Positions 529-48,968 of a stretch of DNA of 51,075 nt are shown here, one piece after another; position 1 is the first letter of the stretch, and each line of letters opens with the position of its first letter. The stretch is from the sequence record PZ871099.1; one strand, 5' to 3'. Both the position numbers and the translations under genes were made by a program. This DNA is from a phage. Under the pieces are notes generated by a model that worked only from the letters and a program-made list of their open reading frames with translations, did no database searches and had not been told where the DNA came from.

Positions 529-2096
529 TGATCATATGGGAAGATTTGACGGCGGCGCAAAAGCGAGCCATTAAAGAAATCAGTGAGCATTCATTCGAAA
601 AGATGATCAGAATCTGGTTCCAATTATTGCAGGGGCAAAAATTCCAGAGCAACTGGCATTTTAGCTTATTGTGCAGTGAGGTAGAGAAGATCATCAATGG
701 AGAGTCGCAGAATGTGATTTTCAACATTACGCCAGGTAGCGGCAAGACTGAGATTTTCTCGATCCACATGTCACCCTACGCGTCATTGAAAAGCCGGAAA
801 GTGAGAAACCTTAACCTTTCGTTTAGTGATGGCCTTGTGCAGCAAAACAGCAACCGGATAAAGGAGATTATTGGTTCTCCTGAGTGGCAAGAGCTATGGC
901 CTGGAAAACTGGCAAAGGCGAGCGCTAAAGATCTGATAGTCACCGAAGGCGGCAAGGTTAAATTGCAGGTTAACTCACGTTCTATTGGCGGCCAGGTAAC
1001 AGGTTTGCGTGGCGGCTATATGGATGATGGTTTTACTGGTATGCTGGTTCTTGACGATCCAGACAAGCCGGATGATATGCTTTCTAAGGTCAAGCGCGAG
1101 GCTATTCACATGCGGTTAAAAAACACAGTGCGATCGCGTCGAATGAAAGACACCACGCCAATTGTTATGGTGCAACAGCGACTACACGTTAATGATTCCA
1201 CCTGGTTCATGCTTAATGGCGGGATGGGTGGTATTGAGTTTAAAGTCGTGAGCATTCCGGCGCTGGTTACAAAAGAATACCGCGAAACACTTCCTGATTG
1301 GTTGAAGCCTGAATTTGATCGTGATGTTCTGTCAAGTAAGCCAGTGATGATAGATGGCGTTGCTCATTATTCATTTTGGCCTGCGAAGGAAAGCGCGGAG
1401 GAGTTGCTTGCATTGCGCAATGCAGATCCTTACACGTTCGCCAGCCAATACCAACAGCAACCAATCGCGCTTGGCGGGAACGTGTTTAAAACAGAGTGGT
1501 TCCAGTATTACGGCAGCGGCGAAAAGTGCGCACTACCAAAACCGGATCGCTTTGAATACACATTTATTACTGGAGATACCGCGCAGAAGGCCGGAGAGCT
1601 TAACGACTATTCGGTTTTTTGTTATTGGGGGATGTATAAGAATCGCGTTTACTTCATTGATGGCATTCGCGGAAAGTGGGAAGCGCCGGATCTTGAATTA
1701 AATTTTATTGCCTTCGTTAACCAGTGCTGGAAGCGCAATAAGGAGTGTGGCAGCTTGCGACGTATCCACATTGAGGATAAGGCCAGCGGCACGGGTTTGA
1801 TTCAGGGGGCCAAAAAGAAGATCCCGATTGATATAAATCCCGTTCAGCGAAGCAATGACAAGGTGACGCGAGCAATGGACGCCGCGCCAGTAATGAGGGC
1901 CGGACGTGTGGCGCTGCCAGAAAATCACCCCATGCTGCCTGAGATACTGGCAGAGGTTGCAGCATTCACTTTTGATGATTCTCATCCCCATGATGATATT
2001 GTCGATAATATAGTTGATGCTGTTAACGTCGAAATGAATTTGGCAGATGATCCGGTAGCAAGGATGAAAAAGCTGGCAGGTCTACGCAATAAATAG
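528..2096 (+). CDS. terL: terminase large subunit
   Basis: 522 aa; Walker A-like ITPGSGKTE; acidic C-terminal nuclease-like region; sits between terS and portal. Confidence 0.85.
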   Translation: MIIWEDLTAAQKRAIKEISEHSFEKMIRIWFQLLQGQKFQSNWHFSLLCSEVEKIINGESQNVIFNITPGSGKTEIFSIHMSPYASLKSRKVRNLNLSFSDGLVQQNSNRIKEIIGSPEWQELWPGKLAKASAKDLIVTEGGKVKLQVNSRSIGGQVTGLRGGYMDDGFTGMLVLDDPDKPDDMLSKVKREAIHMRLKNTVRSRRMKDTTPIVMVQQRLHVNDSTWFMLNGGMGGIEFKVVSIPALVTKEYRETLPDWLKPEFDRDVLSSKPVMIDGVAHYSFWPAKESAEELLALRNADPYTFASQYQQQPIALGGNVFKTEWFQYYGSGEKCALPKPDRFEYTFITGDTAQKAGELNDYSVFCYWGMYKNRVYFIDGIRGKWEAPDLELNFIAFVNQCWKRNKECGSLRRIHIEDKASGTGLIQGAKKKIPIDINPVQRSNDKVTRAMDAAPVMRAGRVALPENHPMLPEILAEVAAFTFDDSHPHDDIVDNIVDAVNVEMNLADDPVARMKKLAGLRNK

Positions 2097-2113
2097 CACT
2101 AATTGCTAAAAAG
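2092..2113 (+). promoter_or_regulatory. conserved intergenic motif copy, degenerate (AATAGCACTAATTGCTAAAAAG)
   Basis: Overlaps terL stop; followed by TATATAAT and a terminator hairpin. Confidence 0.5.
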
Positions 2114-2125
2114 TTATATAATCAA

Positions 2126-2150
2126 GGCTGGATTTTTCCAGCCTTTTTTA
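2126..2150 (+). terminator. rho-independent terminator after terL
   Basis: GGCTGGAtttttCCAGCC plus T-run. Confidence 0.7.
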
Positions 2151-2166
2151 TTATGGAGATTTGACT

Positions 2167-3459
2167 ATGAGCGAAAAAACAAGGCTAGTTAAGGCCGATG
2201 GATACAACGAGATTTTCAAGGGTAGCAAGGGCAATGGGCGTGTGGAGTTGCCTTTCTTTATGCAAGGGTTCGAATACACCACGCACGCTGATTTTTACAT
2301 TCGCGACGGCCTAGCGAAACGAATCATCGACGTTGTTCCAGAAGAAATGGTGACACCTGGATTTAATATTGATGGCGTGGAAGATGAGGAGAGTTTTAGA
2401 TCTTTGTGGGATGAGAAGCGACTAAACGATAAAATCATTGATGCGCTTTGCTGGTCGCGTCTTTTTGGTGGCGCTGCAATCGTGGCAATCGTTCAGGATG
2501 GCAGGGCATTAAAGTCACCTGTAGCGCCTGGTGCAATCCTTGAAGATGTTCGCGTTTACGATCGCTTTCAGGTTCGCGTAGAAAAGCGAGAAACTAATCC
2601 ACGCAAGGTGCGATATGGTGAGCCATTAATTTACACCATTTCACCTGGTGCGGACTTGCCAGAATATCAGGTTCACTATTCGCGAGTCTGTATTATCGAC
2701 GGTGAGCGGCTACCAAATCAGCGACGTCAGTCAAATGATGGTTGGGGTGAGTCAATCCTGAATAAGCGATTGGTTGAGGCTATTTGTGATTACAACTACT
2801 GCGAAAACTTAGCAACTCAATTGTTGCGACGTAAGCAACAGGCAGTATGGAAAGCTAAAGGACTTGCCGATCTTTGTGATGATGATGATGGTGTTAACGC
2901 CGCACGTTTGCGCCTTGCTCAAGTTGATGATGAGGGTGGCGTGGGCCGTGCGATCGGCATTGATGCGGAAGATGAGGAATATGATGTTTTAAATTCTGAT
3001 ATTTCCGGCGTCGATTCATTTCTGGAAAAGAAGATGGATCGCATTGTATCTCTTTCCGGTATCCATGAAATCATCCTCAAAAACAAGAACGTTGGCGGTG
3101 TTAGCGCGAGCCAAAACACGGCGCTTGAAACCTTCTACAAGCTGATCGACCGAAAGCGAAAGGAAGAATACAAACCAATCCTTGAATTTCTGATCCCGTT
3201 CCTGATTCAAGAGCAAGAATGGAGTATTCAGTTTGCGCCGTTAAGCGTTCCCAGCGAAAAGGACCAGGCCGAGATCTTGAACAAGAATATTGATTCTTTG
3301 AGCAAGGCTATTGACGGTCAATTCATGGATACAGAGGAGGCGCGCGACACATTGCGAGCCATTGCGCCTAACGTTAAACTAAAAGACGGCAATAACATTA
3401 AATTACCTGAGCAGGACGTAGAGCCGGAGCCAGGAACAACCGAGGGTAACGATCAATGA
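2167..3459 (+). CDS. portal protein
   Basis: about 430 aa directly after terL; ATG at 2167 follows RBS GGAG (the track start at 2161 is TTG); acidic C-terminus. Confidence 0.7.
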   Translation: MSEKTRLVKADGYNEIFKGSKGNGRVELPFFMQGFEYTTHADFYIRDGLAKRIIDVVPEEMVTPGFNIDGVEDEESFRSLWDEKRLNDKIIDALCWSRLFGGAAIVAIVQDGRALKSPVAPGAILEDVRVYDRFQVRVEKRETNPRKVRYGEPLIYTISPGADLPEYQVHYSRVCIIDGERLPNQRRQSNDGWGESILNKRLVEAICDYNYCENLATQLLRRKQQAVWKAKGLADLCDDDDGVNAARLRLAQVDDEGGVGRAIGIDAEDEEYDVLNSDISGVDSFLEKKMDRIVSLSGIHEIILKNKNVGGVSASQNTALETFYKLIDRKRKEEYKPILEFLIPFLIQEQEWSIQFAPLSVPSEKDQAEILNKNIDSLSKAIDGQFMDTEEARDTLRAIAPNVKLKDGNNIKLPEQDVEPEPGTTEGNDQ

Positions 3460-5859: not shown

Positions 5860-5865
5860 AATCAA

Positions 5866-5890
5866 GGCGCTCACTTGAGCGCCTTTTTTA
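5866..5890 (+). terminator. rho-independent terminator
   Basis: GGCGCTCActtGAGCGCC plus TTTTTT. Confidence 0.75.
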
Positions 5891-5909
5891 TTATGTAAGG
5901 AGAAATGAA

Positions 5910-6692: not shown

Positions 6693-6718
6693 CTAATAGC
6701 ATAAAAAAACATTGCACG

Positions 6719-6737
6719 TTTAACAAAAAGTGCTATC
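6719..6737 (-). promoter_or_regulatory. conserved intergenic motif copy (plus strand reads TTTAACAAAAAGTGCTAT)
   Basis: Upstream of the capsid gene. Confidence 0.5.
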
Positions 6738-6742
6738 ATCTA

Positions 6743-6769
6743 GGCCGTTACATTTAACGGCCTTTTTTA
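6743..6769 (+). terminator. rho-independent terminator
   Basis: GGCCGTTAcattTAACGGCC plus TTTTTT. Confidence 0.75.
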
Positions 6770-6782
6770 TGGAGGAAGCAAA

Positions 6783-7765: not shown

Positions 7766-7794
7766 GGGGAGCCTTAAGGGTTCCCCTTTTTTTA
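7766..7794 (+). terminator. rho-independent terminator after the capsid gene
   Basis: GGGGAgccttaagggTTCCCC plus T7. Confidence 0.75.
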
Positions 7795-7811
7795 TTTATG
7801 GAGTACACAAA

Positions 7812-10404: not shown

Positions 10405-10409
10405 AACAA

Positions 10410-10431
10410 GGGGCGTTGCGCCCCTTTTTTC
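10410..10431 (+). terminator. rho-independent terminator after the major tail gene
   Basis: GGGGCGttGCGCCCC plus TTTTTT. Confidence 0.8.
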
Positions 10432-10470
10432 ATTCCTGTAAAATCAATCTATCAAATAAATTAATTCCAC

Positions 10471-10490
10471 TTTTAACAAAAAGTGCTATA
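10471..10490 (-). promoter_or_regulatory. conserved intergenic motif copy (plus strand reads TTTTAACAAAAAGTGCTATAAGGAG)
   Basis: Abuts the RBS of the tail chaperone gene; contains TGcTATAAG. Confidence 0.5.
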
Positions 10491-10503: not shown

Positions 10504-10821
10504 ATGGCAAAGATGAAACTAACGTTAGGCCCACTGCCTGATTTTAAACTGCCTGTTTCTTTCGTGCTTCCAAATGGTGATGAGCAAGTTATTGTTTTCA
10601 CTGTGCGCCACAAGAAGGCAAGCGAGATTCACGAACGATACACGGCAGAAAAGCCGATGAGCGACGTAGAAATGATCACCTTCCTTGCTTCCGGTTGGGA
10701 TCTGGAAGATGAATTTAACGAGGAAAACGTTGCTAAATTGCTGGATTATTACCCTTCTGCGTCATTATCGCTGACTGGTCATTATATGAAAGCACTTGCG
10801 GGGCAGCGGGTAAAAAACTAA
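10504..10821 (+). CDS. tail assembly chaperone (lambda G-like)
   Basis: 105 aa, ends at slippery site A AAA AAC immediately before the stop; precedes tape measure. Confidence 0.7.
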   Translation: MAKMKLTLGPLPDFKLPVSFVLPNGDEQVIVFTVRHKKASEIHERYTAEKPMSDVEMITFLASGWDLEDEFNEENVAKLLDYYPSASLSLTGHYMKALAGQRVKN

Positions 10822-16344: not shown

Positions 16345-16364
16345 ATAGCACAATATGTTAAAGC
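16344..16364 (+). promoter_or_regulatory. conserved intergenic motif copy, degenerate (AATAGCACAATATGTTAAAG)
   Basis: Starts at the stop of the I-like gene, upstream of the HNH gene. Confidence 0.45.
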
Positions 16365-16405
16365 GAAAACGGATTTTCGCTTTACAATTAATTAAGGAGG
16401 TGATC

Positions 16406-16882
16406 ATGTGGCGTGATATTTTTTATTATAATGACGGTAAGTTATTTTGGGCTGTAGACGTAGGAAGAAGGATAAAGAAAGGAAGTGAGGCAGGAAGCGT
16501 AAGCAAAAGCAAGAAGAGTGGAGAAAGGGTTAGAATATCAATTGATGGAGAAAGATACTACAGGAGCAGGATAGTTTGGGAAATTCATAATGGAGAAATA
16601 CCGCATGGAATGCAAGTTGATCACATAGATCACAACACAATGAACGACAATATTTCAAACTTAAGACTTGTTAGAATGAGTGTTAACAACAAGAATAAGT
16701 CGCTTTACAGGAACAGCAAGACGGGAATTACTGGGGTAAACTTTAGTCGCGGAAAATGGATTGCAAGAGCAAAGATTGATGGTGTTAGGCATGAATTTTA
16801 CTTTGATTCATTTCAGGATGCGGCAGAAAAGAGGATAGAGATTGAAGTTTTAAACAAATTCCACATAAACCACGGAAAGTAG
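16406..16882 (+). CDS. HNH homing endonuclease with AP2-like DNA-binding domain
   Basis: HNH segment DHIDHNTMNDNISNLRLV; AP2-like GVNFSRGKWIARAKIDGVRHEFYFDSF; flanked by terminators; RBS AAGGAGG before ATG 16406. Confidence 0.7.
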   Translation: MWRDIFYYNDGKLFWAVDVGRRIKKGSEAGSVSKSKKSGERVRISIDGERYYRSRIVWEIHNGEIPHGMQVDHIDHNTMNDNISNLRLVRMSVNNKNKSLYRNSKTGITGVNFSRGKWIARAKIDGVRHEFYFDSFQDAAEKRIEIEVLNKFHINHGK

Positions 16883-16888
16883 ATTTAA

Positions 16889-16911
16889 CCAGCATTGCGC
16901 TGGTTTTTTTG
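16889..16911 (+). terminator. rho-independent terminator after the HNH gene
   Basis: CCAGCattGCGCTGG plus T7. Confidence 0.75.
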
Positions 16912-16959
16912 TGCCTTTATAATGTGCAAACCAAGAAACAGCACAAAGGGTTAAAAGTC

Positions 16960-21736: not shown

Positions 21737-21787
21737 TACTCCTTAGTTGTTGTTGGCTGTAACTATACACGATCCGGCAAGCCGAGT

Positions 21788-21806
21788 TTAGCAAAAAGTG
21801 CTACTT
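21788..21806 (-). promoter_or_regulatory. conserved intergenic motif copy, degenerate
   Basis: Minus strand reads AGTAGCACTTTTTGCTAAAC, then TATAGT, upstream of the lipoprotein gene. Confidence 0.5.
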
Positions 21807-21879: not shown

Positions 21880-22170
21880 ACAATAAATAATCAATAAAAT
21901 AGGTATATACATATAAAATCAATAGTTTATTTATTTATGTATGTATATTTGTTTTTTCTTGTTATCTGTGTTTCTTGTGGTTTTGGTTGTTTGTGGTGAT
22001 TTTTCTTTCTGAGTATCTGTATGTGCCATCATTCATGTGTATGTATATAATCCGGCGTATATGAGAGAACAAGGGAACAAGAAAAATAACACATATTAAT
22101 CATTAACTTACGCGTCAAATTTGTTTTATTGCCATCTGAGAACGTTTAGAAAACAGAAAAAACAAAACAA
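21880..22170. repeat. GT/AT-rich non-coding module, copy A
   Basis: Shares TTATTTATTTAT, GTTTTTTCTTGTT, TGGTTTTGGTTGTTTGTGGTG, TGTATGTATATAAT, AAAAATAACA with copy B. Confidence 0.6.
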
Positions 22171-22173
22171 CTA

Positions 22174-22201
22174 TTGACTAAATCAACCAAATGGCTACAA
22201 T
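22174..22201 (+). promoter_or_regulatory. canonical sigma70 promoter (TTGACT-16-TACAAT)
   Basis: Read directly; about 30 nt upstream of the recombination module start. Confidence 0.6.
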
Positions 22202-27179: not shown

Positions 27180-27200
27180 AATAGCACTTTTTGCTAATGA
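27180..27200 (+). promoter_or_regulatory. conserved intergenic motif copy, degenerate (AATAGCACTTTTTGCTAATG)
   Basis: Its complement TTAGCAAAAAGTGCTATTTAGGAGG abuts the tail fiber RBS. Confidence 0.45.
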
Positions 27201-27228
27201 CAATGCAGATAATAGCATTTTCAAGTGC

Positions 27229-28212: not shown

Positions 28213-28247
28213 AAAAAAGCCCAGCAAATATTATCATTTCGCTGGGC
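28213..28247 (-). terminator. terminator-like hairpin after the HTH gene
   Basis: On minus: GCCCAGCgaaatgataatatttGCTGGGC plus T6; lies inside the track N-terminus of primase. Confidence 0.55.
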
Positions 28248-28254
28248 CTTATCA

Positions 28255-28731
28255 TTAGCTATTCGTGCTGTTATCACCTTTGTAGAATCTTCCGCCTGGT
28301 TCGTAGTCTGAATTTTTGACTACGCGCAACATTTCGTATTTGTCGCAACGGGTAGTAAGAGGCTTGCCGTTAGAATCAAACCGCAGATCTGGACGACAAA
28401 ACGAGGCGCGGTATCCTTTGCATCCATTATATTTGTAGTCGTTATGCACCTTTTGTGCTCCAGCGGCTGAAATCATACCACGCTTTCGCCATTGGTTAAC
28501 TACTTGCTGAGATACGCGTAGACGTCGAGCCATAGCAGGAACACCGCCGTAATACTCGATCAGAATGTCAAGGCGAGATTTCAGGCTTGCTTTTACCTCA
28601 TCTCGCAGGATAAGAAATCCGGTTCGGTGTTTTCGTGGCTTTTTGTCTTTACCTCGTCGCGTTCCGTTGTTACCGTTAATAATGCGCTTGTCGATCTCAC
28701 CCGTAGATACTGCAATTCGTGCATCTTTCAT
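28255..28731 (-). CDS. HTH DNA-binding protein (putative transcription regulator)
   Basis: HTH-like segment MARRLRVSQQVVNQWRKRGMIS; Cys-containing C-terminus. Confidence 0.45.
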   Translation of the reverse strand: MKDARIAVSTGEIDKRIINGNNGTRRGKDKKPRKHRTGFLILRDEVKASLKSRLDILIEYYGGVPAMARRLRVSQQVVNQWRKRGMISAAGAQKVHNDYKYNGCKGYRASFCRPDLRFDSNGKPLTTRCDKYEMLRVVKNSDYEPGGRFYKGDNSTNS

Positions 28732-28742: not shown

Positions 28743-28763
28743 ATAGCATTTTTTGTTAAAACA
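28743..28763 (+). promoter_or_regulatory. conserved intergenic motif copy between divergent genes
   Basis: ATAGCATTTTTTGTTAAAAC, then 22 nt, then TATTAT before the helicase; complement abuts the RBS of the minus HTH gene. Confidence 0.55.
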
Positions 28764-28818
28764 GTTTATTGTAATGAGTCTATTATATACTCCAAATGGC
28801 ATTTTTTAAAGGTTTAAG

Positions 28819-30816: not shown

Positions 30817-31235
30817 TGGCTATAACTGATAAAGGCGATTATCTTGAGTTTTACGAAAGAGATCCAACCGACACTAGAAAGGAAGTTAATCACCAGATAG
30901 ATAGTTTTCAGTGGTTGACTTATGCTCATCCTTATTTGCTGGCGTGGCATACGGTAAACGAGAATGAGAAGTCTAAAGCAACGGCGATGATTGATCAGCA
31001 GTCCGGCTTGGTTAAGGGAGTAAGCGATTTCATCATCCTGATTGGTTTAAACGGAAAATACCCCTTTGCAGCGATTGAGATCAAACGAGTTAATAAATCA
31101 GGCAAGGGGAAAGCATCACCAGTCAGCGATGAACAAAAGGCTTTTTTGCGTCGAGTTCGCAGCTTAGGAGGATTCGCTGCGGTCGCCTACGGATTTAATC
31201 AGTTTAAGTTGGCTATTGAATACATGCTTAAATAG
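30816..31235 (+). CDS. VRR-NUC domain nuclease
   Basis: 139 aa; PD-(D/E)XK-like core GVSDFIILIGLNGKYPFAAIEIK...DEQKAFLRRVRSLGGFAAVAY. Confidence 0.65.
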   Translation: MAITDKGDYLEFYERDPTDTRKEVNHQIDSFQWLTYAHPYLLAWHTVNENEKSKATAMIDQQSGLVKGVSDFIILIGLNGKYPFAAIEIKRVNKSGKGKASPVSDEQKAFLRRVRSLGGFAAVAYGFNQFKLAIEYMLK

Positions 31236-31251
31236 CACTTTTTGTTAAAAC
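31231..31251 (+). promoter_or_regulatory. conserved intergenic motif copy
   Basis: Stop TAG of upstream gene embedded; 22-nt spacer with inverted repeat; CATAAT; upstream of dam. Confidence 0.6.
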
Positions 31252-31314
31252 TGGCGCGATGGATTGCGCCATAATTCAATAACACGAGATAACTTTTAAT
31301 AGCGGAGAAATGAA

Positions 31315-32040
31315 ATGGCTAAAGATATTTTAGATAAAGACACCCATGACGCATTCGTTAGCTTTGAGCAGTTGGAGAGAGAAACATTTATAGGGAATGC
31401 CCTTGCAACTGGAGGCCATTACCAGGCAGTAAAGCCAAATCAATATTATAAGGTAAGCGGCAACCGATACGCTGGAAGCACCACGCCGGACGTTGTGCGC
31501 GATATGTGGAGCACGCCTCAAGAGATTGTGGAGTGGATGGAATCAGAATTTGGTGAATACGATCTCGACGCGGCAGCAAGCCAGGAAAACGCAGTTTGCG
31601 AGAAGTTCTATAGCAAGAAAACAAACTGCTTAAAGCGTTGGTGGGGTAGCAACAAGCACGTATGGCTTAACCCGCCGTACATCAACCCAACTCCATTTAT
31701 CAAGAAAGCAATTGAGCAAATGGAGCACAACAACCAAATTGATGTTTTGTTGCCAGCCGACAACTCTACAGCATGGTTTTATGAGGCGCAGAAAAACGCG
31801 GCTGAAATCATCTGGATCACTGGTGAGGTTTACGAAGAGGGTGGAGTAGAATACTCCCGCACCGGAAGAATCGCCTTTGTGTCTGGATTGACTGGCGAGC
31901 CTGTACAGGGCAACAACAAGGGGAGCGTGATTTTTGTCATGCGAAAACTTAAAGAAGGCGAGGAGCAGAAAACGCGATACGTTAAGATCAGCGATATTTG
32001 CCCTTCTGTAACCGAACGCCGCGCGCGCAAACGGAGCTAA
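31315..32040 (+). CDS. dam: DNA N6-adenine methyltransferase (Dam-like)
   Basis: 241 aa; catalytic NPPY motif (HVWLNPPYINP). Confidence 0.8.
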   Translation: MAKDILDKDTHDAFVSFEQLERETFIGNALATGGHYQAVKPNQYYKVSGNRYAGSTTPDVVRDMWSTPQEIVEWMESEFGEYDLDAAASQENAVCEKFYSKKTNCLKRWWGSNKHVWLNPPYINPTPFIKKAIEQMEHNNQIDVLLPADNSTAWFYEAQKNAAEIIWITGEVYEEGGVEYSRTGRIAFVSGLTGEPVQGNNKGSVIFVMRKLKEGEEQKTRYVKISDICPSVTERRARKRS

Positions 32041-32044: not shown

Positions 32045-32302
32045 ATGAAAAAAGAGAGAAGCGTTTATTTAAATGAAACTGGCGAATGGTTGTTATTTCG
32101 CGCTATGGTGTGCGATGCACTTGATAAAAATCCTAACGTGAAAAAGATGATTGATTGCGATCCGTGGGAATTTTCAAGCGCATTAGATATGAGCTTTGAG
32201 GAGACAAGAAAACTCCCGCTTGAAAAATGGCACGAACAAATCAGAAATGACATGCAAGAGTTTGTCGATTCGTGGAATTTTCAGCACGGAATGATCCACT
32301 AA
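32045..32302 (+). CDS. hypothetical protein
   Basis: 85 aa; stop runs into a motif copy. Confidence 0.3.
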   Translation: MKKERSVYLNETGEWLLFRAMVCDALDKNPNVKKMIDCDPWEFSSALDMSFEETRKLPLEKWHEQIRNDMQEFVDSWNFQHGMIH

Positions 32303-32321
32303 TAGCACTTTTTGTTAAAAC
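32301..32321 (+). promoter_or_regulatory. conserved intergenic motif copy
   Basis: Followed by hairpin GCCCGGCCTAGTGTCGGGC and CATAAT. Confidence 0.6.
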
Positions 32322-32377
32322 GCCCGGCCTAGTGTCGGGCATAATTATTTCAACGAAGCAAACATGAGGAAATAAAA

Positions 32378-32557
32378 ATGGTGGTATTCGATAAACGCGC
32401 TTTTAATCTTGCTCAAGAAGTAGCAAAAGGTTCAGTGGATGGCGGTTCAAAGGAAGGATTTCAGTTTGATTGGGAGATCGCAATGTTTTTACTGAAAGTT
32501 GCATACGGTCACGCACCAATTGAACAAGCGGAGGCATATTATAAGCATGAAGGTTGA
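32378..32557 (+). CDS. hypothetical small protein
   Basis: 59 aa ORF not in the track; preceded by motif copy, -10-like box and RBS GAGGAAA. Confidence 0.3.
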   Translation: MVVFDKRAFNLAQEVAKGSVDGGSKEGFQFDWEIAMFLLKVAYGHAPIEQAEAYYKHEG

Positions 32558-32883: not shown

Positions 32884-33999
32884 ATGAAAAATGTAAAAAT
32901 TACAGATGAGCAATTCAAGATCGAACGGGCGGCAGGTAAGACATATAAACAGATCGCTCAAGAGTACGGAATGAATGTGAGAAGCGTCGAGCGTCGCGCG
33001 GCGCGTCTTGCAAAGCAAGGACAGTTATCGACCATCGGAGCGCCTGGTTTTGGTGTTCATGGTGAGTCAGTAATGACTGACAAAGAAGGAAATATAATCC
33101 TCAAGTGGACCAAAACCAGCAAGGATAAAGAGCAATTAGAGGCACTGATGCGCGCAGCTATGGAGGCGTTTAGCGAGGAAGTGCCGCGATTAGATCCAGT
33201 TCCATTGCAGGAGCGTAATTATAATGAAACGCTTTCATTGTATCCGATCTTTGACATGCACTTAGGCGCTATGGCCCATAAGCACGAATGCGGCGAAAAT
33301 TGGGATACTGCGACGGCAGAGCGCGTTATGAATAACTTTATCGACTATGCTTTGATGTGCGCGCCGGACAGCGAAAAGGCTGTTATCCTGATTGGTGGCG
33401 ATATGCTTCATAGCGATGGCCTGGAGGCTGTGACACCTGCAAGCGGTCACGTACTTGATCAAGATAGCCGATATGCAAAATTGGTTTACGTTGCAATCCG
33501 TGCAATGCGTCGCGCAATTAATAAAATGCTGTTAAAGCATAAACATGTTGAGGTTCAGGTCGTTGAGGGCAATCACGACCAATCAGGAATGATTTGGCTA
33601 CGCGCAGCAATGGCGTCAGCATATGAGAACGAGCCGCGCGTTTACGTTGATGTTTCTCCTCGCGTTGTTCACCACACGCAATACGGAAAAACTTTCCTTG
33701 CGTACCATCACGGGCACACAGTGCGCAAACCTGAAACTTTGCTAATGATGTGCGCGTCCGATTGGCGGGAGGACTTCGGAAACTCAAAAACGATGTATGC
33801 GCACGTAGGGCATTGGCATCACCAGACCGTAACGGAAACGTCGCTTGGCATCGTGGAAGTACATAGCACCCTGGCGGCAAAAGACGCATACGCCGCGCGC
33901 GGTGGCTGGCGATCTCGACGCCGTGCGGCGGTTATCATTTACGACAAAGAGCATGGAGAAGTCGGGCGATTTGTTCACTATCCAGAAATGATGAATTGA
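32884..33999 (+). CDS. calcineurin-like metallophosphoesterase with N-terminal HTH-like region
   Basis: Motifs DMH, GGDMLHSDG, EGNHDQ, HHGH, GHWHH in canonical order; N-terminal YKQIAQEYGMNVRSVERRAARLAKQG. Confidence 0.65.
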   Translation: MKNVKITDEQFKIERAAGKTYKQIAQEYGMNVRSVERRAARLAKQGQLSTIGAPGFGVHGESVMTDKEGNIILKWTKTSKDKEQLEALMRAAMEAFSEEVPRLDPVPLQERNYNETLSLYPIFDMHLGAMAHKHECGENWDTATAERVMNNFIDYALMCAPDSEKAVILIGGDMLHSDGLEAVTPASGHVLDQDSRYAKLVYVAIRAMRRAINKMLLKHKHVEVQVVEGNHDQSGMIWLRAAMASAYENEPRVYVDVSPRVVHHTQYGKTFLAYHHGHTVRKPETLLMMCASDWREDFGNSKTMYAHVGHWHHQTVTETSLGIVEVHSTLAAKDAYAARGGWRSRRRAAVIIYDKEHGEVGRFVHYPEMMN

Positions 34000-35481: not shown

Positions 35482-35542
35482 AATTTTACCTTTTGGTTGT
35501 TTCGTTTCGATGAAACAAATATACCCGACACTAGGCCGGGCG

Positions 35543-35563
35543 TTTTAACAAAAAATGCTATTC
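35543..35563 (-). promoter_or_regulatory. conserved intergenic motif copy
   Basis: Same hairpin as the 32301 copy, inverted; TATATT box. Confidence 0.6.
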
Positions 35564-37651: not shown

Positions 37652-37704
37652 TCGTTAGCTTCTCCTTTGTGGGCCGTAAATTTTAACGGCCCAATACTAC
37701 CCCG

Positions 37705-37726
37705 TTTTGTCAAAAAGTGCTATTTG
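37705..37726 (-). promoter_or_regulatory. conserved intergenic motif copy (TTGACA variant)
   Basis: AAATAGCACTTTTTGACAAAAC, 22 nt, TAAAAT inside a hairpin; upstream of the ATPase gene. Confidence 0.6.
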
Positions 37727-38324: not shown

Positions 38325-38377
38325 GATCAGATCTCCTTTGTTTGTTCGATGTGATTATGCCAGGTTTTTACACCTGG

Positions 38378-38400
38378 CTTTTAACAAAAAGTGCTATTTT
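38378..38400 (-). promoter_or_regulatory. conserved intergenic motif copy
   Basis: Hairpin CCAGGTgtaaaaaCCTGG then CATAAT. Confidence 0.6.
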
Positions 38401-40240: not shown

Positions 40241-40295
40241 CTTTAAATCCTAGTTCGTTGTCGATGGGTGTAATATACCATTCAGGCGCACATCG

Positions 40296-40316
40296 TTTTT
40301 AACAAAAAGTGCTATT
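40296..40316 (-). promoter_or_regulatory. conserved intergenic motif copy
   Basis: 22 nt then TATATT, then conserved leader ACACCCATCGACAACGAA. Confidence 0.6.
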
Positions 40317-40602: not shown

Positions 40603-40744
40603 AGTCAACAACTCCAAACTCGTTAACGATTTGCGCCTTATAGAAGCCACCATTTTTCGCCAGGTTGTAACAAGCGGCTACGGTTTCAAATTCGCGCGCT
40701 TCCGGCTGGCTGTTTTCGTGTTCCCAGGTAATCAGAGTAACCAT
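40592..40744 (-). CDS. hypothetical small protein
   Basis: About 50 aa ORF (MVTLITWEHENSQPEAREFETVAACYNLAKNGGFYKAQIVNEFGVVDYEF) not in the track; sits after the 40802 motif copy and conserved leader. Confidence 0.3.
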   Translation of the reverse strand: MVTLITWEHENSQPEAREFETVAACYNLAKNGGFYKAQIVNEFGVVDYEF

Positions 40745-40800
40745 TTTCAAATCCTCGCATTCGTTGTCGATGCGTGTAATGTACAGGAATGCGAGGATTG

Positions 40801-40823
40801 AGTTTTAACAAAAAGTGCTATTT
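40801..40823 (-). promoter_or_regulatory. conserved intergenic motif copy
   Basis: 22 nt then TACATT, then leader ACACGCATCGACAACGAA. Confidence 0.6.
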
Positions 40824-42047: not shown

Positions 42048-42105
42048 TGCTATCTCCTGAGCGGTTCGTTTCGATGTGTGTAATGTACCCGATCAGACGG
42101 CCTGA

Positions 42106-42127
42106 GTTTTAACAAAAAGTGCTATTT
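42106..42127 (-). promoter_or_regulatory. conserved intergenic motif copy
   Basis: 22 nt then TACATT, then leader ACACACATCGAAACGAA. Confidence 0.6.
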
Positions 42128-42149
42128 GACGGTTAGCGCCAGGATTGCG

Positions 42150-42250
42150 ATCGAAATAATCAAAAGTAATCATTCGTAATCAAATCACGTCAAAATGATG
42201 ATTGCCTTTGCAAATTTGATGAGAAAAGTAATCACGTTTAATCATTGGTT
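42150..42250. repeat. iteron-like array of TAATCA repeats
   Basis: AATAATCAAAAGTAATCATTCGTAATCAAATCACG ... AAAGTAATCACGTTTAATCATTGG; five copies spaced about 10 bp. Confidence 0.5.
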
Positions 42251-42399
42251 GCAGGGGAGATAGTGAAACCCTCCCCTCTTGCCTCACTTTTCCGCCTGGC
42301 TGTCAGTGGTTGTTGTCTTTTGTTCACCCCTGTTACCGATTTCAGGCGGCGTGTTTCCGCGCGGTTTTCCGGTGTAGCGAAAACGGAAAAAACAAAGAA

Positions 42400-42680
42400 A
42401 ATCCTCTATAATACATTGAAAATAAAGATTATTTATTTATATATATCTATAATGTTTTCTTTTTGTTCTCACTGTTACAGTGCTTTTTGTTGGTTATGGT
42501 GTGGTTGTGTGTGGGCATATATGGATAGTTGCGCGCGCGGCGGATTGCATATGTATATATACTTTTTCCGGCGGATTGCGTTAACAGCGTGAACAGAAAA
42601 ATAACAGCCCTGAAATCAACAACTTGCGCATGATTTTGTAGTTTTTCGATATTGGTAACGTTTTGAATACAACAAAAACA
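42400..42680. repeat. GT/AT-rich non-coding module, copy B
   Basis: Same blocks in the same order as copy A; spurious ORF 42245..42592 overlaps it. Confidence 0.6.
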
Positions 42681-42708
42681 TTGACACGCACCAAATAGCT
42701 TTTATAAT
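42681..42708 (+). promoter_or_regulatory. canonical sigma70 promoter (TTGACA-16-TATAAT)
   Basis: Read directly; start of the plus-strand early cluster; track ATG at 42707 lies in the -10 box so the gene start is placed at 42740. Confidence 0.65.
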
Positions 42709-43204: not shown

Positions 43205-43464
43205 TGAAAAAGGCATTAATCGGCGTTTTGGCGGCAATGACACTCCTGACCGGATGCGAAAAGGCATCAGAATCAACTGTTGTCGTAGGCGTGGAGTCAG
43301 ATTTCAAAGTCGGCCGCCTGTTCACTGTTGACGGATGCACAGCATACAGATTCTATGATAACGGTCGCGCGATCTATTACACCAACTGCAAAGGCGCAAC
43401 GGATAGCACGTACAACAGCGGAAAGAACGTAATGCACCAGCAAGTCACAACAGATATTAAATAG
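43204..43464 (+). CDS. lipoprotein (putative)
   Basis: Signal peptide with lipobox LTGC (MKKALIGVLAAMTLLTGCEK). Confidence 0.5.
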   Translation: MKKALIGVLAAMTLLTGCEKASESTVVVGVESDFKVGRLFTVDGCTAYRFYDNGRAIYYTNCKGATDSTYNSGKNVMHQQVTTDIK

Positions 43465-43480
43465 CACTTTTTGTTAAAAC
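43460..43480 (+). promoter_or_regulatory. conserved intergenic motif copy
   Basis: Stop TAG embedded; hairpin GCCAGGCgcaaaGCCTGGC; CATAAT; leader CATCGAAACGA. Confidence 0.6.
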
Positions 43481-43536
43481 GCCAGGCGCAAAGCCTGGCA
43501 TAATAGCCTCATCGAAACGAGATTGAGGAAACAAAA

Positions 43537-43722
43537 ATGGCACGTCGCATCACCAAAGACCTTAAAGTCCTGAACAAAGAAAACGTAGTTAAAATCCTGG
43601 TTATCTGGGGCTACAACGAAGAAACAGCAAAGCAGAAGGTCGAGGCGGGTTACGACCTGGCTGTAAAAGCAATGCCAAACGACGACGCAAAAGGCATTGC
43701 AAACTATGTGGCTTTCTTTTAA
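43537..43722 (+). CDS. hypothetical protein
   Basis: 61 aa, motif copy upstream. Confidence 0.3.
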   Translation: MARRITKDLKVLNKENVVKILVIWGYNEETAKQKVEAGYDLAVKAMPNDDAKGIANYVAFF

Positions 43723-43923: not shown

Positions 43924-43943
43924 ATAGCACTTTTTGTTAAAAC
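43923..43943 (+). promoter_or_regulatory. conserved intergenic motif copy
   Basis: 22 nt then CATAAT. Confidence 0.55.
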
Positions 43944-44021
43944 TCGAAAACGATAACCAGACATAATAAATCACATAGGGCGGCACGGCGTCGCCCACAA
44001 AACCAATCAGGAGAAATCACC

Positions 44022-44915
44022 ATGTTAAAACTTGCTGACATTAAATTCCCGATCACCTTCGAATCTCGCGGCATTGGTCATTACATTTTTACCGATGAAA
44101 AAACATGCCATAAGGTTGATATGAATAGCGACAAACTAAGCCCATCAACAATGGAGATTGAACACTTTATTGATGCGCACAATACGCATTACAACGCACT
44201 TAAAGACTATGGCTACGCAATGCCAGGCTACACATGCTTGCACTACAAACCATATAAGGGCCAAGTGTTACCAGTGCGCTCACCGGAACGCGCAGAGATT
44301 CCGATGGTCAATATGAAAACCTGCGACTACAAAAAGCTGTGGTGCTTAAGTCTGGACAATATCAAGTATCCGATCACGTTCCACACGACTGGTAAGTCAA
44401 CGATTCGCTACACATCGCGCGACAATGGCGTTTATAGCGATGGTACGAAATCAGAGTTGAAAGTTGATTTCTTTGTCAACGGTCACAACAAATTCAATCC
44501 GCACAACGAAGAGGATAAAGTGTATTACGTGGAAGACATTACAAAACACTTGTTTGGAGAAACACCATTCGGCGGCGGAAAGACGTCAATTCAAAAAATC
44601 ATTGGCGAGGAGATCCACAAAGCGGCTACCGAAATGAAAGCGCCTGGAGGATGGCGTATTGATAAGAGCGCCTTTGCAAATCAAGAAATCGTAACGCAGG
44701 GCGCAATTGAAGATATTCCAGTTGCAGCCACGCTAAAAGGAGTCCGGCTTGATGATGGCACCTGGTATGAACTAACAGCGAAACCAAAGACGATCGAAAT
44801 TCATGATGACGTTGTTATCCTCCTGCTTCACTATGGCAGCACAAAAAACCGTACCGTTGCGGGTGAGATCAACATCAAGCGCGGAACGATGGTTAAGTGG
44901 AAGGTCAAAGTGTAA
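44022..44915 (+). CDS. hypothetical protein with internal tandem duplication
   Basis: Two related segments LADIKFPITFESRG... and LDNIKYPITFHTTG... Confidence 0.4.
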   Translation: MLKLADIKFPITFESRGIGHYIFTDEKTCHKVDMNSDKLSPSTMEIEHFIDAHNTHYNALKDYGYAMPGYTCLHYKPYKGQVLPVRSPERAEIPMVNMKTCDYKKLWCLSLDNIKYPITFHTTGKSTIRYTSRDNGVYSDGTKSELKVDFFVNGHNKFNPHNEEDKVYYVEDITKHLFGETPFGGGKTSIQKIIGEEIHKAATEMKAPGGWRIDKSAFANQEIVTQGAIEDIPVAATLKGVRLDDGTWYELTAKPKTIEIHDDVVILLLHYGSTKNRTVAGEINIKRGTMVKWKVKV

Positions 44916-44935
44916 ATAGCACGAATTGTTAAAAC
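44915..44935 (+). promoter_or_regulatory. conserved intergenic motif copy, GAATTG variant
   Basis: AATAGCACGAATTGTTAAAAC, then TATAAT inside a hairpin loop. Confidence 0.55.
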
Positions 44936-44988
44936 TCAAATGTGGGGCCAGGTATAATGGCCTCACTTTCAACGAGAGGGGAAACGCG

Positions 44989-46181: not shown

Positions 46182-46337
46182 CTTGGTTGCTTTTAATCTT
46201 TGTCACAAGTTACAACTCCGCAGCTATTGAGTCGCAGGAGTTCCACGGCGAATCAAGATGCCAGGAAGCGCGAAAGCAAGTTATTCTCCACATGTCAGAT
46301 AGCGGGAAGGATGTAACAGCGTTATGCGTTCGTAAAT
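46178..46337 (+). CDS. small secreted/membrane protein (putative)
   Basis: About 52 aa ORF not in the track, hydrophobic N-terminus; ATGA overlap with HAD gene stop. Confidence 0.25.
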
Positions 46338-46355
46338 AGCACTTTTTGCAAAAAC
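46335..46355 (+). promoter_or_regulatory. conserved intergenic motif copy, variant
   Basis: AATAGCACTTTTTGCAAAAAC, then a hairpin with TATAGT in the loop. Confidence 0.5.
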
Positions 46356-46410
46356 AGATTATCGGGCTTGCGGTATAGTAAGCCCATCAACAACAAACGA
46401 GGATTAAATC

Positions 46411-46892: not shown

Positions 46893-46912
46893 GAGAAAAC
46901 CTAAAGGGGGAA

Positions 46913-47065: not shown

Positions 47066-47067
47066 TC

Positions 47068-47658
47068 ATGAAACGAGACATTATCATCCTTAATGGGCCG
47101 CCAGGTTGCGGGAAGGACACTATTGCAGCTTACCTAACGGGCCATCGTTACCCTGCTGTAAAGGCGTCATTCAAACAGCCGATGTTCGATATTGCTTTTT
47201 CTATGCTTGGCGTGTACCGATACGATGAATTTATGGACCTGTACAACGACCGAGAGCAAAAAGAAAAGCCTCAAGTTATCTTGGGCGGCAAGTCACCTCG
47301 ACAATTCATGATCTGGATTAGCGAGGATGTAATGAAGCCAGTTTTTGGGGATCACTATTTCGGGCGTCGAATGGTTGAAGAGATTCACGAGATGTACCGA
47401 GATTTGGCGGTTGTGATCAGTGATGGCGGATTCCCCGAAGAAATCAAGCCGCTCGTTAAGGCGGGGCATGAGGTGCATATTTGCCGATTGCATCGCGACG
47501 GCTTCACGTTTGCTGGCGATTCGAGAGACTACATTGACCTGAGCGGTTATCACTATCGAATCCATCACTATGATTTCCACTTGCAGGACGGAAAGCCGGA
47601 ACTGGCTGTAAGCGAGATCGTCAATGCAGTCAAATGGAAGCACACACAGATTAAATAG
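47068..47658 (+). CDS. P-loop kinase (dNMP kinase-like, putative)
   Basis: Walker A ILNGPPGCGKDT at the N-terminus. Confidence 0.5.
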   Translation: MKRDIIILNGPPGCGKDTIAAYLTGHRYPAVKASFKQPMFDIAFSMLGVYRYDEFMDLYNDREQKEKPQVILGGKSPRQFMIWISEDVMKPVFGDHYFGRRMVEEIHEMYRDLAVVISDGGFPEEIKPLVKAGHEVHICRLHRDGFTFAGDSRDYIDLSGYHYRIHHYDFHLQDGKPELAVSEIVNAVKWKHTQIK

Positions 47659-47674
47659 CACGAATTGCTAAACG
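47654..47674 (+). promoter_or_regulatory. conserved intergenic motif copy, GAATTG variant
   Basis: AATAGCACGAATTGCTAAAC, hairpin GCGGGGttatcgGCCCCGC, then TATAAT. Confidence 0.55.
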
Positions 47675-47728
47675 CGGGGTTATCGGCCCCGCTATAATGC
47701 TTGCATCAACAATCAAGAGGAAATCACA

Positions 47729-48109
47729 ATGGTTAACATCCGAAAAATCCGCGTCGGCACTAAATTCTTAGTTACTTATGCCATTCCAGATAGCGGAATG
47801 AAGAAGGGCCAGATTGTTAAGGTTGATAGCAAAAGATTCGGAATCCCTGGTATCAATGGCTATCTAATCAATAAAGATCTTGGATTTGACGGATTCGCCA
47901 TCCGTGCGCTTGAGGGTATTGTTGCCACTCTTAAACGAATCACTAATCATCGCGGTTGTCCAATCAAGACGATTAAAGCGCCAATAAATTACGGCAAACT
48001 GGATAATCGTCGAATCCGCCGCCTGGCGCGTAACGCGTTAAAATTCCGTGGCGTAGGCGATGATTTCTACTATGGATACAAGAGGATTGCGCGCAATGCT
48101 GGGAAATAA
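47729..48109 (+). CDS. hypothetical protein
   Basis: 126 aa, basic C-terminus. Confidence 0.3.
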   Translation: MVNIRKIRVGTKFLVTYAIPDSGMKKGQIVKVDSKRFGIPGINGYLINKDLGFDGFAIRALEGIVATLKRITNHRGCPIKTIKAPINYGKLDNRRIRRLARNALKFRGVGDDFYYGYKRIARNAGK

Positions 48110-48208
48110 CAATAACGCAACGAATCCTAAGCCACCTTTTGATTTTCATTCCGCAATGATTGCGGTATTATCAATGCTACTTTTTCTTTATAGCATGAGG
48201 GCGCTACT

Positions 48209-48457
48209 ATGGTTTTTAACGCATTGAAACGACTGTTTAAGCCGGAATACCGGATCGTATTTTGCCGCGACTGTTCTACTTATCATGTGCAGCGACGCAG
48301 CTTAGGCGGCAATTGGCACTATGTTACAGACGACTTTTTCGGCATCATTGCCACTGAATTTAAGTATTACAGTGATGCTTATATGTACGTGAAGAAGCGC
48401 CACCGCTTACGCAAGTGTCGTTTTTCCGTGCTGATTCACGTTAATGATTGTTACTGA
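48209..48457 (+). CDS. hypothetical protein
   Basis: 82 aa, Cys-containing. Confidence 0.25.
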   Translation: MVFNALKRLFKPEYRIVFCRDCSTYHVQRRSLGGNWHYVTDDFFGIIATEFKYYSDAYMYVKKRHRLRKCRFSVLIHVNDCY

Positions 48458-48464
48458 GGTGAAA

Positions 48465-48647
48465 ATGAAAACTGGTATTATTATTCTTTTCCTGATCCTT
48501 TTCGGTAGCCATTTAACCATTAACTATGAGGGTATTATGGCCTTTTGGGGCAACTTGATGATTTTTGCCGCTGGTTCAATTACTGGCTACTCTGACGGGA
48601 AAAAGGACGGCGTTCGCAAGATGCTGATGGGACTTAAACAAAAATAA
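48465..48647 (+). CDS. small membrane protein (putative)
   Basis: Start at MKTGIIILF after RBS GAGGTGA. Confidence 0.3.
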   Translation: MKTGIIILFLILFGSHLTINYEGIMAFWGNLMIFAAGSITGYSDGKKDGVRKMLMGLKQK

Positions 48648-48658
48648 GGGGATCTGAA

Positions 48659-48949
48659 ATGGCAAACAAAACTTACCGCAAACTACTGGTTAACGCTTTT
48701 GAAAACATCGCGCAGTGTAACAAGTGGAACGACTCTAAACACTCGCCAGTCACAATGAAGCGCGCCGGATTCAAAAATGCTCGTTCATGGGCGAGAGCTT
48801 TCGCAGCTTGCTATATGCCGGATGGTGGACTAGGAGCGATGAACGATTTTTTGATCAACATGATAGAGGAAGCTGCGCGAGAGGATCGACCGCTGACACA
48901 GCGAGATTTTGATGATTTCGCGCGCGATGAGCTTTACTATCTGGGCTAA
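48659..48949 (+). CDS. hypothetical protein
   Basis: 96 aa. Confidence 0.3.
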   Translation: MANKTYRKLLVNAFENIAQCNKWNDSKHSPVTMKRAGFKNARSWARAFAACYMPDGGLGAMNDFLINMIEEAAREDRPLTQRDFDDFARDELYYLG

Positions 48950-48968
48950 TAGCACTTTTTGTTAAAAC
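48948..48968 (+). promoter_or_regulatory. conserved intergenic motif copy
   Basis: Hairpin AAGGGCAtttggtaaagTGCCCTT. Confidence 0.55.

Follow-up and report, generated by a model that had tools for sequence, protein, structure and literature searches.

In two known phage systems a conserved box stands in for the −35 hexamer of a sigma-70 promoter: the middle promoters of T4 carry a MotA box that is used together with AsiA, and the Pm and late promoters of Mu carry a dyad near −43.5 that serves Mor and C. Here we describe an element of 20–21 bp that recurs along 51,075 nucleotides of phage DNA (sequence record PZ871099.1; this whole stretch is called the window below) and that, judged by its sequence, is a near-consensus marbox, the site of the host activators MarA, SoxS and Rob. 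The arrangement is like that of the T4 middle and Mu promoters in that a sigma-70 −10 hexamer is combined with a conserved box in place of a −35, in many copies that would define one temporal class of genes. It differs in that the activators of T4 and Mu are phage-encoded, whereas the box in the window fits the site of a host activator for which a search of four phage genomes returned no homologue.

The closest host counterparts are class II promoters, in which a forward box overlaps the −35 position and is clustered near −41, a canonical −10 and start follow, and no −35 hexamer is recognisable (a mean of 1.9 matches); in micF complexes, sigma region 4 is displaced from the DNA (PMC10268841, PMC12052159, PMC6900184, PMC8811837). 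The closest described phage counterpart is the 21-nt direct repeat aaATAGCACnnnTTGnTAAAA, which is the same element as that in the window and of which 21 copies were listed in the 2024 re-annotation of phage TLS (PMC11447400). The TLS repeats are intergenic, oriented with transcription and placed about 76 nt ahead of start codons; they fall into TTT, GAA and AAA sub-types, which are common to the window element, and similar repeats were stated for T1, Rtp and Rogue1. Their function was listed as an open question, with stoperators, enhancer sites or UP elements as suggestions, and neither a fixed −10 nor a link to the marbox was given (PMC11447400). The repeat itself is not new; its marbox identity and its fixed −10 are in no searchable paper, none of the literature retrieved on marboxes, phages and promoters concerns T1-like phages, and no start-site or RNA-seq data on T1-like phages came up in the literature searched. 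In Rfam, at gathering thresholds, the element has no match. The phage of the window is a Warwickvirus (Drexlerviridae, Tempevirinae), 94–97% identical to ExeQuayColi, Poky, vB_EcoS-95, tunus and others.

The repeated element as a marbox in class II position

In the window the element follows the pattern ATAGCAC-NNN-TTG-N-TAAAA. A scan with AATAGCACTTTTTGTTAAAAC allowing up to three mismatches gave 16 matches where 0.01 were expected, and a 17-mer core with up to two mismatches gave 17 against 0.02; looser scans bring the total to about 22–23 copies on both strands, from position 2093 to 48968, so the at least 21 copies of the preliminary description are real and far above chance. When the copies are aligned on the element, 17–18 of them prove to be of a promoter type, with a −10 hexamer at a fixed distance, which is more than the dozen or so that had been assigned to this arrangement. 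The distance is 22 nt from TTGNTA to the −10, equivalent to 18 nt after the trailing AAAAC; the fixed 22-nt spacing claimed earlier holds, except that not one copy but two (44916 and 21804) fall short by 1 nt. Beyond the −10 come an A/C-rich leader, a Shine–Dalgarno sequence and a start codon 61–98 nt from the element.

The same anatomy recurs across genera. An exact-pattern scan of IMG/VR together with five complete genomes yielded 409 non-redundant copies, in which (counting offsets from the A of ATAGCAC as 0) offsets 0–6 (ATAGCAC), 10–12 (TTG) and 14–17 (TAAA) are 94–100% conserved, with A or T at offsets 8–9 in 98% and C or T at offset 13 in 93%. No conservation is seen at offsets 20–32 or anywhere upstream of −52. 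Further downstream, offset 36 is G in 78% of copies, offsets 38–43 read TAtaaT with A-11 and T-7 each present in 84%, and offsets 49–50 are CA in 66% and 76%, respectively. In 78% of the 409 copies both −10 invariants stand at the exact spacing, and most of the others deviate by no more than 1 nt; the element and its spacing are thus conserved in related T1-like genomes, a point that the preliminary description had proposed to check. In the 319 promoter-type modules, a subset selected for both invariants, G-14 is present in 86%, TG in 45% and CA at −1/+1 in 63%, and the −10 hexamer of the phage modules agrees with TATAAT at 4.8 of 6 positions. By these features the downstream part is a sigma-70 −10, in part an extended −10, with a predicted start 7 nt on, relative to which the element spans −50 to −31 and is centred at about −41.

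The site consensus for MarA, SoxS and Rob is AYnGCACnnWnnRYYAAAY (PMC3709825), and the phage element agrees with it at all constrained positions but Y19, where it has A. Among the 319 modules, 45 show no mismatch to this consensus and 230 show one (275 of 319 at one or fewer), and the single mismatch is nearly always A at position 19, which is also the base in the micF marbox. The degenerate positions are respected as well, with W10 at 98%, R13 at 100% G, Y14 at 93%, Y15 at 97%, and GCAC and AAA at 96–100% in the 409 copies. Boxes with at most one mismatch number 20 in the window against 1.2 in the shuffled window; T1 has 21, KP36 13 and Vc1 9, and an unrelated Klebsiella siphophage has none.

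The comparison also works in the other direction. With a weight matrix built from phage copies only, 28 kb of E. coli K-12 were searched; the sole positive hit in the marRAB region was ATGCCACGTTTTGCTAAATC (12.3 bits; next −8.9), which is the mar marbox, reverse to marR, and the sole positive hit in the micF region was ACAGCACTGAATGTCAAAAC (13.6 bits; next −6.6), which is the micF marbox in forward orientation; the next best score in the 28 kb was 5.0. The fumC box, despite having no mismatch to the consensus, scored −5.1 with the phage matrix, and the regions upstream of sodA and inaA held no match within two mismatches. Since degenerate host boxes score poorly in this way, the phage boxes resemble the mar/micF type specifically, and they are much nearer the consensus than most host boxes are; the micF box and the phage variant ATAGCACGAATTGTTAAAAC agree at 15 of 20 bases, the trailing AAAAC among them. 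The element is thus a near-consensus marbox by sequence, and the earlier suggestion of a binding site for some phage or host factor can be made specific: a host activator site, in class II position.

That position is borne out by the geometry of micF, which is laid out as box, 18 nt, TAGAAT, 7 nt and annotated +1. The gap between box and −10 in the phage modules is likewise 18 nt, and all 17–18 promoter-type copies read toward their downstream −10 and gene, in the same sense as micF (CACT-7X-AAA). Both also have a 20-bp asymmetric box whose recognition elements, GCAC and (Y)AAA, lie 7 bp apart, and the phage modules match TTGACA at 17-bp spacing at a mean of only 1.63 of 6 positions. The modules differ from host class II promoters in that they belong to a virulent phage, occur 17–18 times in 51 kb, and hold the upstream stop codon in the box and a hairpin in the spacer; E. 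coli micF has the same spacing without a hairpin. Because TTGNTA is part of an activator site and not a −35, the apparently odd spacing of 22 nt needs no special explanation. By sequence and geometry, then, the modules are promoters of the class II Mar/Sox/Rob type, agreeing with it in every sequence-level feature compared.

Other recognition systems fit less well. A canonical sigma-70 −35/−10 reading would place TTGNTA 22 bp from the −10, where 16–18 bp is the norm, and a consensus scan lists no module apart from an accidental TTAAAA-18. A sigma-54 site (−24/−12; TGGCAC-N5-TTGC) keeps its GG and GC exactly 10 bp apart; the element, with TAGCAC-N3-TTGC, falls 2 bp short of this and shows AG in place of GG, and a sigma-70 −10 follows at a fixed distance. 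The consensus sequences of CRP, FNR, IHF, Fis and the UP element, compared by eye, gave no fit.

Two features of the transcribed part recur beside this architecture. The initial transcribed sequence CAUCGAAACGA is conserved at offsets +1 to +10 of each module (e.g., 43511-43521), and the A/C-rich leaders end in ACGAGGAG. This leader style appears to belong to the leaders of the phage, or to their translation, in general rather than to the box promoters, because the leader of the recE-like exonuclease gene, behind a canonical promoter, has the same style.

Stop codons and hairpins within the modules

The gene upstream ends inside the element, as had been noticed in the window, in about 85% of a non-redundant set of 287 modules drawn from many T1-like genomes. 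The stop is the TAG of ATAGCAC (offset 1) in 51%, the TAA of TTGNTAAAA (offset 14) in 13%, and a TAA or TGA at offset −3 or −2 in 15%. The spacer and −10 region has a mean minimum free energy of −12.3 kcal/mol against −6.5 for shuffles, with 80% of modules at −8 or below and about 12% free of any stable hairpin. The inverted repeats reported earlier for the spacer are therefore real, but they are not always confined to the 22 nt: they form two classes, with the loop centred near offset 29 or near offsets 37–38, and in the latter class, which accounts for roughly one-third to one-half, the −10 is enclosed in the loop. There is no fixed pairing register and no consistent pairing of columns across modules. 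Stem sequences vary by site yet stay complementary (AAGGCC/GGCCTT, AAGGGC/GCCCTT, TAACGTC/GGCGTTA), and several of the hairpins are annotated as rho-independent terminators in T1 or KP36 or score as terminator-like in the window.

Because the upstream open reading frame ends in the box, the promoter spacer is the only room left for a hairpin of the upstream transcript, and we infer that the hairpins serve the upstream gene as terminators, 3′ stabilisers or insulators and play no part in promoter recognition. One spacer may be of further consequence. In the module at 40771..40821, the spacer TCCTCGCATT is complementary to AATGCGAGGA, which covers the Shine–Dalgarno sequence of the downstream gene, so that read-through transcripts could have their ribosome-binding site masked and transcripts from the module's own predicted start could not.

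Modules, late-gene copies and ordinary promoters along the window

The promoter-type copies are collected in Table 1 with the copies at late genes and with the ordinary promoters. The eighteenth module is probable; its degenerate box sits within the 3′ end of the regulator gene, and the same position is occupied in T1 and KP36. The −10 of the module at 28743 overlaps that of the divergent regulator promoter. Between two tail genes lies an HNH cassette (window 16345-16905; Pfam HNH_3, E = 1e-15) with its own box promoter and terminator, which looks mobile, bringing its promoter module along, because it is absent from the 96%-identical phage ExeQuayColi.

Table 1. Predicted promoter modules, other copies of the element and ordinary promoters in the window
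Feature	Coordinates	Strand	Sequence features	Gene served or adjoining
Promoter module	16345..16395	+	box ATAGCACAATATGTTAAAGC, 18 nt, TACAAT, predicted +1 at 16395	HNH endonuclease, 16406-16882
Promoter module	21755..21804	-	box GTAGCACTTTTTGCTAAACT, 17 nt, TATAGT	small lipoprotein-like open reading frame starting near 21730
Promoter module	28743..28793	+	box ATAGCATTTTTTGTTAAAAC, 18 nt, TATTAT	helicase, 28819-30816
Promoter module	31232..31282	+	perfect box, spacer hairpin GGCGC/GCGCC, CATAAT	31315-32040 (methyltransferase by annotation of a close relative)
Promoter module	32302..32352	+	perfect box, terminator-like hairpin 32322-32340, CATAAT	32378-32557
Promoter module	35511..35561	-	box ATAGCATTTTTTGTTAAAAC, terminator-like hairpin 35541-35523, TATATT	35481-35257
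Promoter module	37673..37723	-	box ATAGCACTTTTTGACAAAAC, TAAAAT in hairpin loop	37651-36071 (helicase by annotation of a close relative)
Promoter module	38347..38397	-	box, hairpin GCCAGG/CCTGGC, CATAAT	38324-37938
Promoter module	40265..40315	-	box, no clear hairpin, TGgTATATT	40240-40043
Promoter module	40771..40821	-	perfect box, TACATT	gene starting at 40744
Promoter module	42075..42125	-	perfect box, TACATT	42047-41775 (first promoter of leftward early operon)
Promoter module	43461..43511	+	perfect box, hairpin GCCAGGC/GCCTGGC, CATAAT	43537-43722
Promoter module	43924..43974	+	perfect box, CATAAT	44022-44915
Promoter module	44916..44965	+	box ATAGCACGAATTGTTAAAAC, 17 nt, TATAAT in hairpin loop	44989-45216
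Promoter module	46336..46386	+	box ATAGCACTTTTTGCAAAAAC, TATAGT in hairpin loop	46411-46674
Promoter module	47655..47705	+	box ATAGCACGAATTGCTAAACG without mismatch to the marbox consensus, hairpin GCGGGG/CCCCGC, TATAAT	47729-48109
Promoter module	48949..48999	+	perfect box, TGgTAAAGT in hairpin loop	49025-49237
Probable 18th module	28221..28271	-	degenerate box ACAGCACGAATAGCTAATGA, 18 nt, TAATAT	primase, starting at 28199
Major-capsid promoter	6702..6762	+	A-tract, TTGCAC (6712-6717), 16 bp, TGcTATCAT (6731-6739)	major capsid
Tail-fibre leader	27181..27217	-	TGcTATTAT 27217..27209 from partial second copy; full reversed box 27200..27181 abutting the Shine–Dalgarno sequence	tail fibre, ATG at 27163
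Reversed copy	10439..10489	-	abuts ribosome-binding site; own correctly spaced TAGATT (10451..10446)	tail chaperone, 10504
Forward copy	2093..2112	+	no correctly spaced −10; terminator 2124-2145 follows	TerL/portal junction
Degenerate forward copy	16938..16957	+	ACAGCACAAAGGGTTAAAAG, no −10	start of large tail-tip protein gene
Canonical promoter	42681-42708		TTGACA-16-TATAAT, 12/12 match	head of rightward early operon
Canonical-type promoter	22174-22179 and 22196-22201		TTGACT, 16 bp, TACAAT	recE-like exonuclease
Regulator promoter	28810..28782	-	TTTAAA-17-TATAAT	regulator
Extended −10			TGGTATAAT	before terS

The preliminary description had set apart a second arrangement, in which the reverse complement of the element abuts the ribosome-binding site of late genes, and had suggested that TGcTAT within it could act as an extended −10. 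The reversed copies at 6783, 10504, 27163 and 28731 are confirmed, but the suggestion is supported only at the capsid gene, where it is conserved in six genomes, and may apply at the tail fibre by way of the partial copy upstream; at 10504 and 28731 the hexamer lacks its final T and overlaps the Shine–Dalgarno sequence. The arrangement is thus heterogeneous. The reversed box at the regulator gene lies in its leader, and that copy, at 28743, doubles as the forward module of the helicase gene at 28819.

Ahead of the capsid coding sequence, a canonical promoter with an extended −10 has its spacer filled by the reversed box (6717-6736), and the predicted start falls within the 5′ arm of a terminator hairpin (6743-6762). 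Because the box fills that spacer, a protein bound on it should repress the capsid promoter. MarA may repress rob, purA and hdeA through boxes between −35 and −10; the E. coli rob promoter, checked as a model of this arrangement, held no match within two mismatches. The copy ahead of the tail chaperone gene has a −10 of its own on the opposite strand and would fire antisense into a bidirectional terminator (10408-10426); the predicted RNA, about 35–40 nt long, would face the 3′ end of the transcript from the major tail gene. This arrangement is conserved in T1, and its extended −10 and downstream sequence are kept in T1 and other genomes. The degenerate copy at 16938 has counterparts at the same position in TLS (DR8) and in T1 (25021). 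At the late-gene junctions 2124-2160, 5864-5895, 6742-6775 and 7766-7795, a strong terminator hairpin and T-run are followed by ATTATGGAG(G)A directly before the next gene.

Ordinary promoters are few in the window, and in TLS only three sigma-70 promoters are predicted, including homologues of those at 42681-42708, at the recE-like gene and at the regulator gene. Since the phage also uses ordinary −35/−10 promoters, the box promoters form a distinct class, which is predicted from the DNA to be the chief one in the early and replication regions. Two AT-rich non-coding stretches adjoin the ordinary promoters. About 550 bp between the divergent early operons (42126-42708) carry GTAATCA-type repeats at approximately 42150-42240 and an AT-rich "tatatat" stretch at 42400-42560, and end in the 12/12 sigma-70 promoter; this may be an origin, a pac site or a host-takeover control region. 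The stretch at 21900-22201 has "tatgtatata" repeats like those of 42400-42560, followed by the recE promoter.

The regulator, a protein of 158 aa encoded at 28255..28731 on the minus strand (T1 gp23, Rtp52), is a core gene product present in 830 phage records. Its all-alpha helix-turn-helix core folds like the Cro proteins Xfaso-1 and N15 Cro (target TM-score 0.66–0.73), which bind as dimers; an N-terminal arm that is basic and invariant precedes the core, and a C-terminal extension, also conserved, follows it. The best-conserved part is not the helix-turn-helix but this arm (DKRxxNGNNGTRRGxDxxxRK), which is glycine/asparagine-rich, predicted to be disordered and invariant in 26 diverse homologues. 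For Rtp52, an action on conserved inverted repeats ahead of genes was reportedly proposed in the Rtp genome paper (Wietzorrek et al. 2006). Twenty "Campylobacter phage" records carry this T1-like regulator at 79% identity along with T1-like DNA, and look like enterobacterial Drexlerviridae with a doubtful host label. The other protein singled out earlier for its helix-turn-helix, encoded at 32884-33999 (T1 gp16 family, conserved), is a calcineurin-like phosphoesterase annotated as "DNA repair exonuclease"; its N-terminal helix-turn-helix is weakly like sigma-70 region 4, and the KP36 annotation agrees.

Proposed host activation and its alternatives

It is reasonably probable, in our judgement, that the modules are early promoters activated by host MarA, SoxS or Rob (RamA in Klebsiella). 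Each of the 17–18 boxes would form the upstream half of a sigma-70 promoter of about 55 bp in which the box replaces the −35 hexamer, with a good −10 placed 18 bp past the box, usually G-14 and often TG, and a start at CA 7 nt after. A host activator on the box would contact sigma-70 region 4 and the alpha C-terminal domain and so recruit RNA polymerase. Rob is constitutive and abundant and MarA and SoxS are stress-induced; Rob would be the likeliest activator in unstressed cells, and stress would bring MarA, SoxS or RamA into play. Every small cassette, whether of early, accessory or replication genes, would have an activator-dependent promoter of its own, and where the upstream gene ends in the box, the lack of intergenic room would squeeze the upstream hairpin into the promoter spacer. 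The reversed or embedded copies at late genes would be unable to act as class II promoters. Neither MarA nor the N-terminal domain of Rob had a homologue among 2,347 six-frame open reading frames of four genomes (phmmer --max; best E 0.19), which makes the host proteins the natural candidates. A constraint imposed by the host would also fit the fact that the box is unchanged in Vc1, where the regulator shares only 49% identity and differs in its recognition helix.

Several observations weigh against host activation. A Keio screen with the TLS-like phage LL5 required only lipopolysaccharide genes, tolC, secB and ppiB, and rob, marA and soxS are unnamed in the main text of that paper (PMC7229145), so that no single one of these three genes is essential for plating; redundancy or basal activity of the extended −10 could explain this, but a promoter independent of host factors would give the same outcome. 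In the absence of stress there is little MarA or SoxS, and most Rob is reported to sit in inactive clusters under standard growth (PMC10268841). Five or six copies of the element lack a correctly placed −10. Box positions 3, 11 and 12 are more conserved than the marbox consensus demands, and the core holds a 5-N5-5 palindrome, TAGCA/TGCTA, that is perfect in the TTGCTA variant, which together make a second, phage-encoded binder possible. Literature searches returned no binding, footprint or start-site data for any T1-like phage.

The candidate for such a binder is the Cro-like regulator, and a reading in which the element is its operator, with TAGCA-N5-TGCTA centred at −42 serving to activate the early promoters or to shut them off, is unlikely, though several observations speak for it. 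Activation of this kind has models in lambda cI at OR2, the C-proteins and Mu Mor, and shut-off has one in Cro. The palindrome is the commonest 5-N5-5 palindrome in T1 (10), KP36 (6) and the window (4), the core gene encodes a fold known from dimer binders, a reversed box lies 10–13 nt before the regulator start codon in every genome examined, and the overlap of the regulator's canonical −10 with that of the divergent box promoter is a switch-like layout. Yet the conservation is asymmetric (C7/T11 are not mirrored, AAAAC occurs on the right flank only, and the right half-site has C or T about equally), which would not be expected of a symmetric dimer and agrees in full with the marbox consensus; most window copies have an imperfect palindrome; and regulator and box show no covariation, the box being the same in Vc1 despite the diverged recognition helix. 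The unrelated phage VLCpiS13c, which has a distant helix-turn-helix homologue, has a box-free genome and is uninformative. Binding by the regulator is in any case compatible with the marbox, as the phage protein may be a later competitor of the host activator. It is rather improbable that RNA polymerase acts alone, on extended −10 promoters whose upstream 21 bp are UP-like or an odd −35, in cassettes that were duplicated and kept alike by recombination. The G-14, TG and good −10 hexamers noted above would suit such promoters, (T/C)TAAAA at 19-bp spacing agrees with TTGACA at 3.2 of 6 positions, LL5 does without single rob, marA or soxS, and UP elements were suggested by the TLS authors (PMC11447400). 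What this reading leaves unexplained is the position-by-position match to a known protein site; moreover, the invariant G+C-rich GCAC is foreign to UP elements, nothing is conserved upstream of −52, and an element that is invariant across subfamilies while its spacers have fully diverged speaks for selection on each copy.

The ending of upstream genes within the element in about 85% of modules, by TAA, TAG or TAA according to frame, invites a further explanation that we hold to be more doubtful again, namely that the element marks a cassette boundary, offering stops in three frames and a recombination site for the shuffling of small genes, or acts as a "stoperator" roadblock to read-through. 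The HNH cassette, missing from the close relative but bearing its own copy, and the −10-less copies at gene starts in the late region are in keeping with it. Promoter-early stem-loop (PeSL) cassettes in T4-type phages, reportedly described by Arbiol et al. 2010, are alike in that a repeated early promoter and a stem-loop flank small variable open reading frames and are plausible substrates for cassette shuffling, but they are T4 early promoters with −35, −10 and UP element, used by unaided host polymerase. The stoperators of mycobacteriophage L5, a comparison raised by the TLS authors (PMC11447400), are likewise asymmetric repeats in short intergenic gaps, oriented with transcription; they differ in binding the repressor of a temperate phage and in having no fixed relation to a −10. 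A boundary function would not explain the fixed −10 distance, the CA start or the marbox match, and is best seen as a by-product of having a repeated promoter. The hairpin-based ideas of the preliminary description are very improbable. One was that extrusion of the hairpin changes the effective spacing, bringing TTGNTA into −35 range, and the enrichment of spacer hairpins over shuffles would favour it; as a spacing device, however, the hairpin is disfavoured by its lack of a fixed register against a fixed linear spacing, about 12% of modules do without it, many hairpins enclose the −10, several are annotated or scored as terminators, and micF has the same spacing with no hairpin. The other, that the element is itself an extended −10 promoter with the hairpin at the transcript 5′ end, is not supported in the forward modules, where the conserved CA start lies 7 nt after the downstream −10.

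Activation by host Mar/Sox/Rob proteins can be extended to a wider scheme that is speculative, and that we would put forward with clearly less confidence. In T1-like phages (Drexlerviridae, among them the Klebsiella weberviruses used in phage therapy), almost the entire early programme would be wired to the host Mar/Sox/Rob/RamA regulon, reuse of the box in reversed or embedded form would hold back the capsid, tail and regulator promoters, early expression would report antibiotic, oxidative or bile stress in the host, and the early-to-late switch would follow from loss of the activator, through titration of a finite pool by the multiplying boxes or displacement by the Cro-like protein.

Identification of the repeat as a marbox turns a published open question about its function into a directly testable one, and in a virulent phage a connection with regulators of antibiotic resistance would come as a surprise. 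If the host proteins do activate these promoters, a large family of virulent phages of enterobacteria would rely on, or sense, the multidrug-resistance regulators MarA, SoxS, Rob and RamA, and some 300 natural, near-optimal class II marbox promoters would become available for studies of these activators. Early gene expression would then be altered in clinical marR and ramR mutants and in cells exposed to salicylate, bile or redox drugs. This would bear on phage–antibiotic combinations and on the choice of therapeutic phages for Klebsiella and E. coli.

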